Shown here: piece by piece, positions 5,350 to 12,955 of the stretch
How the letters are laid out: the number at the start of each line of letters is the position of its first letter
Numbering within the stretch: position 1 is the first letter of the stretch
Assembly: GCA_037381105.1 (NCBI GenBank)
Contig: JARRRC010000001.1
Span: 1 to 39,593 of the forward strand
DNA: 39,593 nt
Reading direction: 5' to 3'
Origin: Desulfobacterales bacterium
GTDB lineage: Bacteria; Desulfobacterota; Desulfobacteria; Desulfobacterales; UBA11574
Notes under the pieces: generated by a model
What the model was told of the DNA's origin: nothing
Database searches by the model: none
Seen by the model: only the letters and a program-made list of their open reading frames with translations
Made by a program: the position numbers and the translations under genes

Positions 5350-6168
5350 ATGTTGGGAATCAGCACGATAAACATAGAGTTGACAAGCCGCTGTAACAAG
5401 AAATGCCACATGTGCGGCCGCCGCAAGCTGGAGAAAGAAAACCTTGATTATGAATCAACGATGGGCGATATGGAGTGGAATACTTTTGCTAAAATAGTAG
5501 AACAGATTGAGGCCGGCATGGTCGTTCAACTCCACTGGAATGGGGAGCCGACACTTTCTAATTTTCTTTTTGCTGCAAGCTGTACTATAAGAGGCATGGG
5601 TGCATTCGCTTGCATGGATACAAATGGTCTTTTGTTGGGTAAAAAAGCTGATGACCTGGAACATTTCTCTTCCATAACAGTTTCCGTAATCCAGGGAGAT
5701 TCACAAGAGAATTATGATCGACAGATGGCGCAGATTAGGTTCTTTATGGAGACGAATAGATTTCTCGGTTTTTTCCCACAACAGAAAATAAACATCCGCG
5801 CCCTGGGAGAAATCCCGCTTTCTTTTTATCAACTCGCCGGAGAGTACGGGATCGATATCATCCCACGTATATTTCATGCGCCGGAAATGAGCAGAGACTA
5901 TCAAAAACAAGTAACCATGCCGGAAATAGGCGTTTGCCTCGACCTGCTGCATCACCCTGCCATAGACCGCCATGGGAACCTATTCCCTTGTGTGCGCTTT
6001 AACCCTGAAGGGCTAAACTGCCTCGGTAATGTCAATGAACACAGTATAGCAGACCTTTTATCCGGTGAGATCCGCACGGAAATGATCAGAAAACACTTTG
6101 AAGGTAGGCGCAACGAGGTCCCTCTTTGCAATACCTGCCACTATTGGGGTCTTCCGACAGCCCCTTAA
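5350..6168 (+). CDS. Small radical SAM enzyme with a C-terminal SPASM/twitch-like Cys cluster
   Basis: 272 aa. The N-terminal motif is ELTSRCNKKCHMCGR (CxxxCxxC). C-terminal cysteines occur in GVCLDLL, LFPCVRFNP, LNCLGNV and PLCNTCHYWG. The gap to the preceding radical SAM gene is 3 nt. Confidence 0.75.
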   Translation: MLGISTINIELTSRCNKKCHMCGRRKLEKENLDYESTMGDMEWNTFAKIVEQIEAGMVVQLHWNGEPTLSNFLFAASCTIRGMGAFACMDTNGLLLGKKADDLEHFSSITVSVIQGDSQENYDRQMAQIRFFMETNRFLGFFPQQKINIRALGEIPLSFYQLAGEYGIDIIPRIFHAPEMSRDYQKQVTMPEIGVCLDLLHHPAIDRHGNLFPCVRFNPEGLNCLGNVNEHSIADLLSGEIRTEMIRKHFEGRRNEVPLCNTCHYWGLPTAP

Positions 6169-6184
6169 AAAAGAAAGGACAACC

Positions 6185-6946
6185 ATGAACGCAGACACAG
6201 ACAAAGATCTTATCGAAAAATACAATCAGGTCTATGCGGACGGAGAAGAAAAATTCTGGACGTTTCTGCCGGTTGAAGAGCGCCTGGCTATACTTAGAAA
6301 TATTGATCTGCAGGGGAAAACGGTGCTTGAAATAGGCTGTGGCACTGGTGATTTCGCCGCCTGGATGGCATCCTGTGGGGCTAAATTGGTTGTTGCGGCT
6401 GACGCAAGCGGAGCTGCTATCCAAGCAGCCTGCGGGAAATATTGTTTGTCAAATCTTGTCTTTTATGCTTCAGAGCTTAAAATGCTCGGCAATCATAAGG
6501 AATATGATTTTATCGTCATGGTAGGAGTGCTTGAACACTTCAACAATCCAGACGACACAATAGGTTATATCGTCAAGAACATCATGTCCAAAGGTTCCCG
6601 CCTGGTGATAACCTGCCCCCTGTTTATAAATCCCCGTGGCTTTATCTGGGTCGCTCTTAAATATCTTTTCGATGCCCCTATGAGCCTTACCGACAAACAT
6701 GAAATAAGCCCCAACTGGATAAGAAAGATAGCCAAAAAATATGGCCTAAAAACAATCCACACGGAATCGGTTGATTTCAACTGGGGATGCGGGGATAAAA
6801 TGATTTTCGATTATTCCCAAAGACTTCCGAAGGTTTTTCCCGATATGGATGATGAAAAGATAAACAAGATGCTATCATGGCTTAAAGAAAATAAAGAATA
6901 TTTCCAGGGGCTGGGGGCGAACGCGCTTTATATATTGGGAAAGTGA
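6185..6946 (+). CDS. Class I SAM-dependent methyltransferase
   Basis: Motif I is VLEIGCGTGDFAAW, followed by VVAADAS and FIVMVGVLEHF. The ATG at 6185 is preceded by AAAGAAAGGA. The ORF-track start at 6098 would overlap the upstream gene. Confidence 0.8.
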   Translation: MNADTDKDLIEKYNQVYADGEEKFWTFLPVEERLAILRNIDLQGKTVLEIGCGTGDFAAWMASCGAKLVVAADASGAAIQAACGKYCLSNLVFYASELKMLGNHKEYDFIVMVGVLEHFNNPDDTIGYIVKNIMSKGSRLVITCPLFINPRGFIWVALKYLFDAPMSLTDKHEISPNWIRKIAKKYGLKTIHTESVDFNWGCGDKMIFDYSQRLPKVFPDMDDEKINKMLSWLKENKEYFQGLGANALYILGK

Positions 6947-9282: not shown

Positions 9283-9301
9283 GGCAGCCGCGCTAAAATA
9301 A
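9283..9301. repeat. 19-bp direct repeat, left copy, flanking the C5-methyltransferase gene
   Basis: ggcagccgcgctaaaataa occurs at 9283..9301 and again at 10165..10183. The second copy includes the last codons and the stop of the MTase gene. Upstream similarity extends imperfectly (tttatgg...). Confidence 0.9.
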
Positions 9302-9305
9302 ATAA

Positions 9306-10178
9306 ATGAACTATTATAACGACAATGATAAATTTTGTTCCAAGTGGCTGAAGGATCTTATCAAAGCAAAGCTTATTCCATGTGGGGAAGTCGATGACAG
9401 ATCAATTAAAGAGATATCTCCTAAAGAACTCCAAGGATACAAGCAATGCCACTTTTTCGCAGGCATTGGAGGATGGGCTTACGCACTCAGATTGGCTGGA
9501 TGGCCGGAAGACAAGCCCGTGTGGACGGGAAGTTGCCCTTGCCAGCCATTTAGTATCGCCGGAAAAGGCCAAGGAGTTAATGACAACAGACACCTTTGGC
9601 CCGCTTTTCGATGGCTTATCTCTCAGTGCAGACCTGCAACAATTTTTGGGGAACAGGTTGCGTCAAAAGCTGGGCGTGAATGGCTCTCCGGAATACGTCT
9701 TGACTTGGAAGCGATGGGATATGTGTTCGGGGCCGCCGATCTGTGCTCTGCGGGCGTCGGTGCGCCGAACATCAGGCAAAGATTGTTTTGGGTGGCCGAC
9801 GCCAAACACTCCGAATGGAGGAAGAAAAACGCCACCGGGCACCAGCACAACAGGAAAGACGCCGGACGGGAAAAAGCGCCAGGTGGATCTGCAGCATGTG
9901 GCTCTTTCGATATCAGGCTGGCCAACTACGAGAGCGAACGATTCGGAAAAACGCGGGAATGTATCGGAGGACAGGCGCAAGGGACTCCCTGGTCAAAGTC
10001 TACAGATATCGAGTGCAGAGACGGAAAAAGACGAAGGATACCTATTGAACCCGCTCTTTCCCCTCTGGCTCCAGGGCTACCCAAAAGAGTGGGCTTATTG
10101 CGTGGTGCCGGAAATTCAATCAATCCTTGGGTAGCCAAAATATTTATTGAGGCGTTTATGGATTGGCAGCCGCGCTAA
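9306..10178 (+). CDS. DNA (cytosine-5)-methyltransferase, phage type
   Basis: The motifs are FFAGIGGW (I), TGSCPCQPFSIAGK (IV), IFGEQV (VI), GVGAPNIRQRLFWVA (VIII) and RGAGNSINPWVAKIFIEAF (X). The N-terminus YYNDNDKFCSKWLKDLI and the C-terminal CRDGKRRRIPIEP...PKRVGLLRG match the phage Dcm subfamily I recall. Confidence 0.85.
   Translation: MNYYNDNDKFCSKWLKDLIKAKLIPCGEVDDRSIKEISPKELQGYKQCHFFAGIGGWAYALRLAGWPEDKPVWTGSCPCQPFSIAGKGQGVNDNRHLWPAFRWLISQCRPATIFGEQVASKAGREWLSGIRLDLEAMGYVFGAADLCSAGVGAPNIRQRLFWVADAKHSEWRKKNATGHQHNRKDAGREKAPGGSAACGSFDIRLANYESERFGKTRECIGGQAQGTPWSKSTDIECRDGKRRRIPIEPALSPLAPGLPKRVGLLRGAGNSINPWVAKIFIEAFMDWQPR
9394..10134 (+). CDS. Long alternative-frame ORF nested in the C5-MTase gene, encoding a GWPTP-repeat and LNPxFxxWLxGxPxxW-box protein. 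It may be an overprinted gene or a recoded segment.
   Basis: The +1 frame relative to the MTase is open from GTG 9382 (ATG 9394) to 10134. It reads GSPEYVLTWKRWDM..PPICALRASVRRTSGKDCFGWPTPNT...SGWPTTRANDSEKRGN...LLNPLFPLWLQGYPKEW. I recognise these motifs from prophage proteins. See the findings for caveats. Confidence 0.35.
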   Translation: MTDQLKRYLLKNSKDTSNATFSQALEDGLTHSDWLDGRKTSPCGREVALASHLVSPEKAKELMTTDTFGPLFDGLSLSADLQQFLGNRLRQKLGVNGSPEYVLTWKRWDMCSGPPICALRASVRRTSGKDCFGWPTPNTPNGGRKTPPGTSTTGKTPDGKKRQVDLQHVALSISGWPTTRANDSEKRGNVSEDRRKGLPGQSLQISSAETEKDEGYLLNPLFPLWLQGYPKEWAYCVVPEIQSILG

Positions 10179-10183
10179 AATAA
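10165..10183. repeat. 19-bp direct repeat, right copy (see 9283..9301)
   Basis: Identical string ggcagccgcgctaaaataa. Confidence 0.9.
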
Positions 10184-10200
10184 TGACAAAGGGGATTATT

Positions 10201-10509
10201 ATGCCAAGAAACATGAGTCGCGAAAAAACAGTCACGCGCCGCGTAGGATGGAACTTTCTAAAACCAGGTGATATCTTGCAGGCTGTCGAAAAGGCGCAGG
10301 GACTCAAGAAGGGTGAAAAAGTCAAACGCATTTGTTTAATAAGGGTTATTTCCTGCCGGCATGAGCCATTAAATAAAATAACTGCGGCAGATTGTATCCT
10401 TGAAGGATTCCCCGAAATGAGTCCACGCGAATTCGTTAATATGTTCTGTGCAGCTAATAAGTGGCATCCATCCAAGGATGTAAACCGGATCGAGTTTGAA
10501 TATATTTGA
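10201..10509 (+). CDS. ASCH (PUA-like) domain protein
   Basis: KTVTRRVGWNFLKPGDILQAVEK...ICLIRVISCRHEPL is a typical ASCH N-terminal pattern. AAAGGGGA lies 6 nt before the ATG at 10201. The ORF-track start at 10147 overlaps the MTase gene. Confidence 0.65.
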   Translation: MPRNMSREKTVTRRVGWNFLKPGDILQAVEKAQGLKKGEKVKRICLIRVISCRHEPLNKITAADCILEGFPEMSPREFVNMFCAANKWHPSKDVNRIEFEYI

Positions 10510-10667: not shown

Positions 10668-10844
10668 ATGGATAAACCACCGATGGAACCAATAGAAAAA
10701 GTTCAAAGGTTAGCGGCTATAGGAAAGCATGTCGCGTTAATCAATAAACGATATGGTTTCAATGATGATCATAAATTAATTTCCACATTGAAAGAGGTTA
10801 AAGAAGCATTAAGGAATAGAATAATAGAGATATTGGAATCATGA
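10668..10844 (+). CDS. Possible small ORF (58 aa) translationally coupled to dnaB
   Basis: Manual translation gives MDKPPMEPIEKVQRLAAIGKHVALINKRYGFNDDHKLISTLKEVKEALRNRIIEILES. Its stop overlaps the dnaB ATG (ATGA at 10841..10844). There is no clear SD sequence. Confidence 0.35.
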   Translation: MDKPPMEPIEKVQRLAAIGKHVALINKRYGFNDDHKLISTLKEVKEALRNRIIEILES

Positions 10845-12130
10845 GTAAAATTCTTCCACACAACATAGAAGCAGAAGAAAGTATAATTTCATCCTGCTTG
10901 CTTGGGGGATATAAAGAACCATGCGCGACACTGGAACCATCTGATTTTTATAAAACAGCACACCAAAAAATATTCATTTCAATTCAATCTCTTGCATCAA
11001 CAAACAAGCCCATTGATTTAATCACTGTAATAGATGCGCTGACTCAAATAAGCAAATTCATTAATACAATTCCGGTAGCCAATTCAATCACCCATTATTG
11101 CAAAATCATAAAAGAAAAAGCATTAAAAAGGCAGATCATATCAAGATGTAACGATTTGATGCAGAATTGTTTTAACGATAATCACATCGGAGATCTGCTT
11201 GAAGAAGCAAAGTATATTTCCGAACTCGGCGAAACAGGGCTCATCAACAGGAAAAGAAAAGTTGATTTGTCTAACGTTTATGATGCCAAGCGCATGCTGC
11301 TTGAATATGATTTATATGTAAAGACCTTGAAAAACAATCGTTTCATTACTGGAATAGGAGAAATTGATAAGAGAATCAGGGGGGTCGCCGGTGGTGAAAC
11401 TATGTTCATAATCGCCAGGGCCGGAGCCTATAAAACTGCATTGCTGCAAAATCTATTAAGAAACTATGTTAATAACTCTGCCTGGGGGTCCGTATTCTTT
11501 TCGATAGAAATGCCTATTTCAAATATCGCGGAAAGATATCTGCAGCAATTTGATAGATCACCCGGATATCAAATTGAACAGCATTACGCCAATAACGATG
11601 AGGATTCAATCTCAGCCCTGGAGAAACGCTTCAGAAATGAACTTAAACGTTTCTTTGTCGTCCCAACCAAGGTCAGCCTATCAGATATAGAGCAATATAT
11701 TAAAATCATTGAAGATTCAAAACAATTAAAAATAGGCTTAATCGGTATCGATTACATGCAACTAATCGACGAGCCCGGGAAAGAATACGAGCAAATTACT
11801 AAAATTGCACGCGGCAGTAAAGACCTGGCAAAATATTTAAATATTCCAGTTATTGTTTTGTCGCAAATCAACCGGCAAGGCGAGGATGGAAACACAGAAG
11901 TTTCTCTTTCCATGGGGCGGGGTTCCGGGGCTATCGAGGAAGCCGCTGATTTCATGCTCGGACTCTGGAAAAATAACGAAGACCTGATTTGCAAGATACT
12001 AAAAAACCGTAAGGGTTCAGCGGGTTCGATGTGGAAACTTGAACTTGATTCAAATTGTTTTCTGATAGGCCAGAATTCCGTCAGGTATTCTAAAACAAAA
12101 ACCAAAAAATCAAATGGGTATTGTGATTAA
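10841..12130 (+). CDS. dnaB: Replicative DNA helicase, DnaB family
   Basis: The N-terminus LPHNIEAEESIISSCLLGG is the classic DnaB opening. The C-terminal RecA-like domain carries IIARAGAYKTALLQN (Walker A variant), FFSIEMP, LIGIDYMQLI (Walker B) and VIVLSQINRQ. Confidence 0.85.
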   Translation: MSKILPHNIEAEESIISSCLLGGYKEPCATLEPSDFYKTAHQKIFISIQSLASTNKPIDLITVIDALTQISKFINTIPVANSITHYCKIIKEKALKRQIISRCNDLMQNCFNDNHIGDLLEEAKYISELGETGLINRKRKVDLSNVYDAKRMLLEYDLYVKTLKNNRFITGIGEIDKRIRGVAGGETMFIIARAGAYKTALLQNLLRNYVNNSAWGSVFFSIEMPISNIAERYLQQFDRSPGYQIEQHYANNDEDSISALEKRFRNELKRFFVVPTKVSLSDIEQYIKIIEDSKQLKIGLIGIDYMQLIDEPGKEYEQITKIARGSKDLAKYLNIPVIVLSQINRQGEDGNTEVSLSMGRGSGAIEEAADFMLGLWKNNEDLICKILKNRKGSAGSMWKLELDSNCFLIGQNSVRYSKTKTKKSNGYCD

Positions 12131-12955
12131 ATGACTTATCGAAAATTTGATACCGGAACTTGGGTAGATCCATGGTTTGAAAATTTATCATTTAAAGCGA
12201 AACTCGGTTTTGTTTACTTTTGGACCAATGAGGTTTGTAATCCTGCCGGCATATATGAAATATCTGAAAAACGCATTTCTTTCGAGTTAGGATACCATAT
12301 CGATACCATATATTCGGAATTGGATACCAGAATTTTATGGGATAAAGACAAAAATATGGTTTGGGTAAAGAATTTTTTCAGACACCAATGCCAGAACTCT
12401 AAATTCGCTATCTCTGCTCTTAACTCTATTCGCTCGGATTCGCTTAAATTAAAGCTATTTATAGAATATAACCGACCCATTTTAGAGCACTACAAAATAG
12501 ACTTATCAGCATACCATATCGATACCATATCGATACCATATCCTACAGAACAGAACAGAACAGAACAGAACAGAACAGAAAAAGACTCTATGTCGAAACT
12601 CGATGAGTTTCAACTTTCAGAAAGCGACCGGGAAAATCAAATCCCAAAATGCCCTTATCAAAAAATCATAGATCTGTATCACGACATATTGCCTGAACTG
12701 CCTAAAATCAAAGTACTGTCCGAAGAACGCAAAAAACAATTAAAAGCGCGTTGGTTGTCCGGACTATCAAGCAATGGCTTTAAATCCTGGTCAATCGAAT
12801 ATTGGGAGGGTTTTTTCAAACACATTCGCGGAAGCCCCTTTCTTATGGGCCAGGTCGCTCCATCGCCAGGGCATAAACAGTTTATTGCTGATTTCGAGTG
12901 GGTTACTAAAAAATCAAGTTTTATCAAAATTATAGAGGGGAAATACCATGAATAG
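12131..12955 (+). CDS. Putative replication initiator or replisome organiser with internal iteron-like repeats
   Basis: The gene lies directly after dnaB (taaATG). The N-terminal domain contains WVDPWFENLSFKAKLGFVYFWTNEV. The C-terminal domain contains ILPELPKIKVLSEERKKQLKARW...SPFLMGQ...FIADFEWVTKKSSFIKIIEGKY. Both resemble prophage replication proteins as I recall them. The repeats fall in the inter-domain linker. Confidence 0.55.
   Translation: MTYRKFDTGTWVDPWFENLSFKAKLGFVYFWTNEVCNPAGIYEISEKRISFELGYHIDTIYSELDTRILWDKDKNMVWVKNFFRHQCQNSKFAISALNSIRSDSLKLKLFIEYNRPILEHYKIDLSAYHIDTISIPYPTEQNRTEQNRTEKDSMSKLDEFQLSESDRENQIPKCPYQKIIDLYHDILPELPKIKVLSEERKKQLKARWLSGLSSNGFKSWSIEYWEGFFKHIRGSPFLMGQVAPSPGHKQFIADFEWVTKKSSFIKIIEGKYHE
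12292..12313. repeat. Two tandem copies of the 11-mer ATACCATATCG (second copy 9/11)
   Basis: ataccatatcg ataccatatat, read directly from the sequence. Confidence 0.8.
12511..12542. repeat. Three tandem copies of the 11-mer ATACCATATCG (iteron-like)
   Basis: ataccatatcg ataccatatcg ataccatatc(c), read directly. This is the same 11-mer as at 12292. Confidence 0.85.
12546..12580. repeat. Pentanucleotide microsatellite (CAGAA)x7 inside the coding sequence
   Basis: cagaa occurs seven times in a row and encodes TEQNRTEQNRTE. The unit length is not a multiple of three. Confidence 0.95.

Follow-up and report, generated by a model that had tools for sequence, protein, structure and literature searches.

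The stretch of DNA analysed here (the window) is one entire contig of 39,593 bp, JARRRC010000001.1 of assembly GCA_037381105.1, from a Desulfobacterales bacterium. It harbors a gene coding for a C5-cytosine DNA methyltransferase chain, named alpha below, and a second long open reading frame (ORF), named beta, which is nested in the alpha gene and read in the +1 frame (Table 1). The overlap is a real and strongly conserved case of dual coding in which both ORFs are kept open, and the two products probably form one methyltransferase made of two polypeptides, in the manner of M.EcoHK31I.

The alpha product is identical to the NCBI entry [quoted passage not shown] and has more than 8000 homologs, which is a lower bound. 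It matches phrog_363 of PHROGs (1.5e-70) and, above the gathering threshold, the Pfam family PF00145 (51.7 bits, E 1.2e-13, cut-off 22). The original prediction, made from the letters and their translations alone, had assigned motifs I, IV, VI, VIII and X to this frame, and its coordinates and motifs were all correct on re-reading. The five motifs are kept across 108 homologs, and motifs I and IV-VIII can be aligned to M.HhaI. The alignment to PF00145 is confined to positions 65-178 of the 324 positions of the hidden Markov model (HMM). The AlphaFold2 (AF2) model of alpha has a mean predicted local distance difference test score (pLDDT) of 76.5 and a predicted template modelling score (pTM) of 0.71; it is confident at residues 1-175 and in the C-terminal helix 270-290, and shows disorder at residues 176-228 (pLDDT 41-58) and 252-268, with a short hairpin at 232-246. 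Foldseek matched this model to M.HhaI and M.HaeIII (E ~1e-7) over ~170-194 of 327 columns, corresponding to the large domain alone. From the HMM span, the AF2 disorder and the Foldseek coverage, neither a target recognition domain (TRD) nor motif IX was found within the alpha polypeptide. As modelled, alpha has the large-domain fold of C5 methyltransferases and is without the small domain. It thus shares its large-domain fold and its motifs with the monomeric PF00145 enzymes M.HhaI and M.HaeIII, and the C-terminus of beta resembles their motif IX, but at this locus no single chain joins a TRD and motif IX with the catalytic motifs.

As originally stated, the +1 frame forms an ORF at 9382-10134, which encodes 250 aa from a GTG codon or 246 aa from the ATG codon at 9394. 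Its translation includes GSPEYVLTWKRWDM, PPICALRASVRRTSG, EYVLTWKRWDM and PICALRASVRRTSG, together with the two predicted GWPT[PT] modules, GWPTP and GWPTT. GWPTP in beta and VADA in alpha are the same bases of the window in a shifted reading; the LADA-like strings of annotated homologs are likewise the frame-1 reading of GWPTP modules, an explanation already put forward in the original prediction. A homology search with the beta translation, one of the checks proposed there, returned 1027 homologs (best E 1e-105), all unnamed and without Pfam domains, and a profile search brought the family to 27,063 cluster representatives. Beta matches phrog_1008 (2.9e-19). This PHROGs family of the beta frame is separate from phrog_363 of the alpha frame, and both carry the label DNA methyltransferase. 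The impression that both translations are recurrent prophage protein families is confirmed by these large homolog sets and by the two PHROGs families.

In the AF2 model of beta the first ~68 residues are disordered, and order is predicted for a helix (residues 79-96), a hairpin (101-123) and the C-terminal helices (220-246); near the GWPT modules the chain is extended or poorly modelled. The helix and hairpin overlap motifs VI-VIII of alpha and include the invariant residues L89, G97, E100, W105, I116 and A121. They are a candidate module for docking on alpha. Near the C-terminus lies a box in which residues L218, N219, W225, L226, G228, P230 and W233 reach 90% conservation or more and which the model places in helices (pLDDT 81-87). 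HMMER gave no match of beta to PF00145. When profiles of the beta and M.HhaI families were compared by hhalign, a single local alignment resulted, a weak one (E 0.011, probability 3.9%), pairing YLLNPLFPLWLQGYPKEWAYCV of beta with RKLHPRECARVMGYPDSYKVHP of HhaI, which is HhaI motif IX (residues 272-293). The LQGYPKEW box had been described as the one that normally sits just before motif X in methyltransferases. Its position holds as that of motif IX, in that the only beta region alignable to M.HhaI falls there, but the score of the alignment leaves the assignment weak. The beta stop codon at 10134 lies past GAGNS, and beta does not read those bases as motif X.

Table 1. Features of the dual-frame methyltransferase locus in the window
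Feature	Positions	Strand	Basis
Alpha gene: C5-cytosine methyltransferase chain, 290 aa; large catalytic domain, linker and motif X helix	9306-10178	+	ORF
Beta gene, nested in alpha, +1 frame; 246 aa from ATG	9394-10134	+	ORF; homologs
Alpha motif I, FFAGIGG, S-adenosylmethionine (AdoMet) binding	9453-9473	+	G53, G56, W57 invariant (108 homologs)
Alpha motif IV, PCQPFS, catalytic Cys79	9537-9554	+	P78, C79 invariant (108 homologs); pairs with M.HhaI PCQAFS
Alpha motif VI, GEQV, variant of ENV	9648-9659	+	G115, E116, Q117 invariant (108 homologs); pairs with HhaI MENV
Alpha motif VIII, RQRLFWVA	9774-9797	+	R157, R159 invariant (108 homologs); pairs with HhaI QKRERIYMI
Alpha motif X (GAGNS; GAGNSI) and C-terminal helix	10104-10166	+	G269, N270 conserved (108 homologs); AF2 helix 274-287, pLDDT 88-90
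Beta ordered N-terminal element: helix (residues 79-96) and beta-hairpin (101-123; EYVLTWK / ICALRAS)	9628-9762	+	AF2 pLDDT 73-86
Variable central cassette; in beta, GWPTP (9790-9804) and GWPTT (9916-9930) modules with spacers	9798-10044	+	Identity to relative L005; substitution rates
Beta motif IX-like box, LNPLFPLWLQGYPKEW	10045-10092	+	Conservation, hhalign, AF2
Weak Shine-Dalgarno-like GGGGAAG, 3 nt 5' of beta ATG 9394	9384-9390	+	Sequence reading
AAGGAG-TTA-ATG, candidate alternative internal beta start (Met 9580, 184-aa product)	9571-9582	+	Sequence reading
19-bp perfect direct repeat GGCAGCCGCGCTAAAATAA, left copy	9283-9301	+	Repeat search
19-bp direct repeat GGCAGCCGCGCTAAAATAA, right copy, includes alpha stop codon	10165-10183	+	Repeat search

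As in the window, the two frames are open in the homologs, a set of ~100 loci that ranges from cyanophage to T4-like coliphage. Whichever of the two translations was used, tblastn led to one set of phage methyltransferase genes, matched in the same DNA register, and in N15 gp58, eiAU, PMG1 and PhiXhv-2 the unannotated second frame is open and conserved in all four. In 84 distinct loci followed from motif I to the alpha stop codon, the first +1-frame stop lies no more than 40 codons from the alpha stop in 65 loci, 15 loci have no such stop ahead of the alpha stop, and 4 have an earlier one; the other four frames contain a median of 4-9 stops. All loci retrieved via alpha harbor beta, and distant phages (of Burkholderia, of a cyanobacterium, and a T4-like coliphage) have alpha and beta in 3/3 cases. 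Conversely, in 80 of 80 IMG/VR loci retrieved by beta motifs the -1 frame holds an open ORF for a cytosine methyltransferase; strict regular expressions for four motifs matched 57 of the 67 anchored IMG/VR loci, the remainder being judged by eye. Beta without alpha occurs in none of the ~100 loci. Further ORFs open in the window, one in the third forward frame (9743-10048) and two of ~100 aa on the reverse strand, had been listed correctly in the original prediction; these are due to chance, since the frames concerned carry stops in the 84 homologs and are not conserved there.

Synonymous-codon shuffles indicate that neither frame stays open as a by-product of the other. In the window gene, none of 500 shuffles with the alpha protein fixed kept the +1 frame open (5.3 stops expected), and none of 500 with the beta protein fixed kept frame 1 open (9.5 stops expected); in this whole-gene version of the test the third forward frame was as expected. 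Over 76 loci, with alpha fixed, 0 beta-frame stops were observed in motifs I-VIII against 129±9 expected; with beta fixed, 0 alpha-frame stops were observed in the central cassette against 234±13 expected. A whole-gene shuffle test of +1-frame identity (z ~50) was dropped, since its value is inflated by related pairs and a rise was seen in the +2 frame too, and was replaced by distant-pair and per-region tests.

In distant pairs, synonymous-codon identity in alpha has a baseline of 0.31-0.46 and rises to 0.61-0.66 at nt 9621-9755 (beta LQQFLGNRL...EYVLTWK...ICALRAS), to 0.68 at the second GWPT module and to 0.70 under the LNP...LQGYP box of beta. The constraint on alpha synonymous sites falls exactly under the conserved beta elements. 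Substitution rates per codon position were used in place of a tblastn of the cassette alone, which gave few and weak matches in both frames over ~83 loci: 8 in alpha, all at the CRDGK end, and 4 in beta, in the GWPT modules. In motifs I-VIII the rates at alpha positions 1/2/3 are 0.177/0.133/0.363, an alpha-type pattern. In the central cassette the rates at beta positions 3/1/2 are 0.430/0.164/0.116, a beta-type pattern (p ~1e-218 from 144 high-scoring segment pairs in 139 locus pairs, which are phylogenetically non-independent), and in the C-terminal overlap those at alpha positions 1/2/3 are 0.214/0.139/0.275, a mixed pattern. Both ORFs are under purifying selection, and the dominant frame switches by region. 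Suppressed synonymous variation, an open +1 frame and frame-specific substitution in the homologs had been named beforehand as checks for overprinting, and all were found.

The central cassette is also the region in which near-identical genes differ. The window gene and its close relative L005 have 96-100% nucleotide identity at 9301-9800 and 10051-10150, and 30-50% at 9801-10050, and both frames are open in the two cassette versions. Such a drop in identity between near-identical genes is the pattern expected of an exchanged specificity region. In alpha, the cassette reads as a K/R/G-rich disordered linker. One possibility, which we consider evenly balanced, is that the specificity cassette is read in the +1 frame, so that beta and not alpha would carry swappable GWPTP-type units, alpha being a stop-free spacer there. 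At a larger scale, the gene is bracketed by two copies of a direct repeat, and identity to L005 collapses beyond them, so that the whole gene behaves as a cassette. From its sequence, the methyltransferase gene looks mobile or recombining. An equivalent repeat is suggested for L005 by the short peptide GGRAKINK, to which both flanks of its gene translate.

Several candidate starts are available for beta. The start adopted here is shared with L005, in which the gene caller begins a 236-aa protein (P0001) at MTDQLK. In N15 the beta frame opens only 15 codons past motif I, so that its first Met is that of the equivalent MTNDTSG. Moreover, in many homologs the alpha motif VD[ED]RSIxDV is coded ...gAAAGGAGyatc....gATGt, which places AAGGAG 8 nt 5' of a beta-frame ATG; AGG is used at that Arg in 21 of 77 loci, compared with 11% of Arg codons gene-wide. 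These features suggest that beta is started independently inside the alpha gene and would be translated separately in this phage.

A known enzyme has this layout. M.EcoHK31I of E. coli HK31, which recognizes YGGCCR, consists of alpha and beta polypeptides, with beta coded wholly inside the alpha gene in a different frame; motifs I-VIII, motif X and a predicted TRD are in alpha, motif IX is in beta, and association of the two is required for activity (PMC2836561; PMC3404938, citing Lee, Kam and Shaw 1995, NAR 23:103; also Fung et al. 2006, as described there). Internal Met codons are alternative starts of its beta, whose N-terminus is needed for association (PMC2836561). The present locus resembles it in that beta (9394-10134) lies entirely within alpha (9306-10178), in the +1 frame, as it does in ~100 loci, and in that alpha has motifs I, IV, VI, VIII and X and is without motif IX. 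The sizes are similar as well, with alpha of 309 aa and beta of 176 aa in EcoHK31I, and 290 aa and 184-246 aa here. Here too several internal Met codons could start beta, and its N-terminal half holds its one ordered and selected element. The locus fits every architectural feature of M.EcoHK31I that could be tested, with only a weak match for motif IX in beta. It differs in its setting: M.EcoHK31I is a member of a restriction-modification system, whereas the present gene stands as an orphan within the replication module of a phage. The original prediction did not include this published precedent.

Other comparisons are more partial. M.AquI of Agmenellum quadruplicatum (CYCGRG) is a two-subunit C5 methyltransferase (Karreman and de Waard 1990; PMC3404938). 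It is likewise naturally split, with two polypeptides needed and the break in the variable region, but its small subunit has motifs IX and X and follows the large one, whereas here alpha retains motif X and encloses beta, in the +1 frame, over ~740 nt. Classical overprinted phage genes include Rz/Rz1 of lambda (PMC9409062), which are also a same-strand pair nested in the +1 frame with both products needed for one function; the overlap here is far longer (~245 codons), and the products would be parts of one enzyme fold. A literature search for this overlap in phage methyltransferases returned only M.EcoHK31I and M.AquI, and nothing that describes it as a phage family of wide distribution.

We therefore favor, as the probable explanation, a C5-cytosine DNA methyltransferase of the EcoHK31I type whose two polypeptides are encoded by one DNA stretch in two frames. 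In this explanation alpha would provide the large domain, with motifs I, IV, VI, VIII and X, for AdoMet binding and catalysis, a disordered spacer occupying the segment where a TRD and motif IX are usually found. Beta would be initiated within the alpha gene in the +1 frame, at ATG 9394 and possibly also at 9580. Its helix and hairpin probably dock on alpha, the GWPT[PT] modules of its swappable cassette probably recognise the target sequence, and its C-terminus would supply a motif IX-like helix. As experiments showed for M.EcoHK31I, the two chains would come together into an active enzyme, here an orphan methyltransferase marking the DNA of the phage. We infer the association of the chains, the role of beta in target recognition and the methylation activity.

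Several points weigh against this explanation. Beta has no significant match in Pfam, NCBIfam or PADLOC, either as a single sequence or with any of the 112 aligned members, and both its sequence and its profile gave chance matches only against PDB sequences. Its AF2 model is partly ordered only (pLDDT 61, pTM 0.30), and Foldseek returned nothing below E 1 with it, the model being too disordered to inform. To these can be added the weakness of the motif IX match, the weak Shine-Dalgarno sequence of the window's own beta start and the relatedness among the locus pairs in the substitution counts. Most loci were retrieved through beta motifs, so that alpha relatives without beta may exist. Finally, the likeness to M.EcoHK31I is one of layout, drawn from published descriptions, and the literature puts the predicted TRD of that enzyme in alpha, whereas here the cassette is selected in the beta frame.

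Some of these points would suit a beta that is real and separately translated but has a function unrelated to the methyltransferase, for example as a regulator, an anti-defence or a DNA-binding protein, next to an alpha that is a self-sufficient short methyltransferase. The lack of a significant match of beta to any methyltransferase model and its largely disordered AF2 model agree with this, and a conserved hairpin of alpha, W..C.DGK.R..EP (229-246), could be a minimal recognition element. We regard this alternative as unlikely, because beta never occurs without alpha in ~100 loci, its sole likeness to M.HhaI is to motif IX, the one motif that alpha is without, and the swapped cassette is selected in the beta frame just where C5 methyltransferases have their specificity region. 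Moreover, M.EcoHK31I, with the same layout, works as one enzyme (PMC2836561).

The original prediction had offered three options, namely a conserved overprinted gene, a recoded enzyme and chance, and the open frames, the shuffles and the frame-specific selection establish the first of them. Recoding would produce one canonical enzyme through two programmed frameshifts, +1 past motif VIII and -1 past motif IX, giving an alpha(I-VIII)-beta(TRD, IX)-alpha(X) product. The regional order of selection (alpha, beta, alpha) fits such a product, as does the canonical spacing from the end of the motif IX-like box at 10092 to the start of motif X at 10104. However, the beta frame is open (0 vs 129 stops) and selected at nt 9621-9755, that is, more than 50 codons 5' of the proposed shift site, and alpha is open across the whole cassette (0 vs 234 stops), even through an HNH insertion in one locus (L019, described below). 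The junction codons vary in homologs (RQRLFWVA vs RDRTYWVG) with no conserved slippery site evident, many homologs have a Shine-Dalgarno sequence and an ATG for beta, and an alpha/beta/alpha chimera scores no better against PF00145 than alpha itself (51.9 vs 51.7 bits). Two frameshifts are thus very improbable. As to chance, the +1 ORF could be a non-functional, compositional by-product of a stop-poor, K/R/G-rich region, and the other ORFs open in the window would fit this. We give it practically no credence, as the remaining frames are stop-rich in homologs and the +1 frame is not, and as the shuffle tests, the purifying selection in the beta frame and the 27,063 representatives of the beta profile all speak against it.

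The layout is known from one E. coli enzyme, and here it is very widespread and usually half annotated. Two points look under-appreciated, namely how large the family is and that its specificity cassette apparently lies in the nested frame. With thousands of natural replicates, an overlap of ~245 codons in which the dominant frame switches offers material on the evolution of overprinting and on coding capacity. If beta indeed carries the recognition modules, the specificity of phage methyltransferases could become predictable and re-engineerable by cassette swap, and the TRD assignment to alpha in M.EcoHK31I would deserve re-examination. With the cassette in the +1 frame and 27,063 representatives, the family could be among the largest in prokaryotic viruses in which two genes on the same strand overlap over a long distance.

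Annotation pipelines that do not allow extensive overlap between genes on the same strand return alpha or beta, and few records list both. The NCBI annotation calls alpha, and many metagenome gene calls are beta; one and the same 5.29-Mb chromosome has alpha (P0170) as the called gene at NCBI and beta (P0090) in its ENA record. Only the alpha frame is annotated in N15 and eiAU, and only the beta frame in PMG1 (L001), PhiXhv-2 (L002), vB_PR2a (L105) and Cr-LKS3 (L106). The labels given to beta in such records are "hypothetical protein", "putative metabolic enzyme", "methyltransferase" and "DNA methyltransferase". As a result of single-frame gene calls, half of a probable two-chain enzyme is missing from most records. 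The recent GenBank record of PhiXhv-18 (L104), at least, annotates both overlapping coding sequences, each as "DNA methyltransferase", so that automated annotation already captures the overlap in some records. A homolog in the K1ind3 phage is labelled "Mte8", a name whose origin could not be traced in the literature.

The genomic surroundings of the dual-frame gene vary among the phages. In the window, ORFs for a DnaB-like helicase (10841-12130) and for a replication initiator (12131-12955) lie downstream of it. A scan of ten neighbouring ORFs revealed none recognisable as a nuclease. In the relatives L006 (3858-5876) and L007 (2385-4226) the dual-frame methyltransferase lies directly 5' of a GpA-type large terminase. 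With a terminase as neighbour there and a helicase in the window, the cassette is present in different modules of different phages. In eiAU (L004 1804-2349), L105 (1359 onwards) and L106 (1179 onwards), a second, different DNA methyltransferase gene comes right after the dual-frame gene. A methyltransferase-like ORF is also found in the window ~2.4 kb upstream (6098-6946; phrog_22502 "methyltransferase", E 8.5e-10), adjoined by a weak radical-SAM-like ORF (5350-6168). In addition, a 120-aa ORF downstream of alpha (10147-10509), without a PHROG match, starts inside the region of the right-hand repeat and shares its first part with the end of the alpha gene.

One IMG/VR locus, L019 (IMGVR_UViG_3300037014_000313), has a 164-aa ORF (2366-2860) in the beta frame, right after the beta stop codon. 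By eye, it shows HNH-endonuclease-like motifs (HVHH...N...C..CH), and after it comes what is left of the former beta C-terminus. Alpha continues uninterrupted through this insertion to a total of 530 aa, with 0 stops against 9.0±2.2 expected and none of 2000 shuffles keeping the frame open. In this locus alpha is apparently read through a third overlapping gene.

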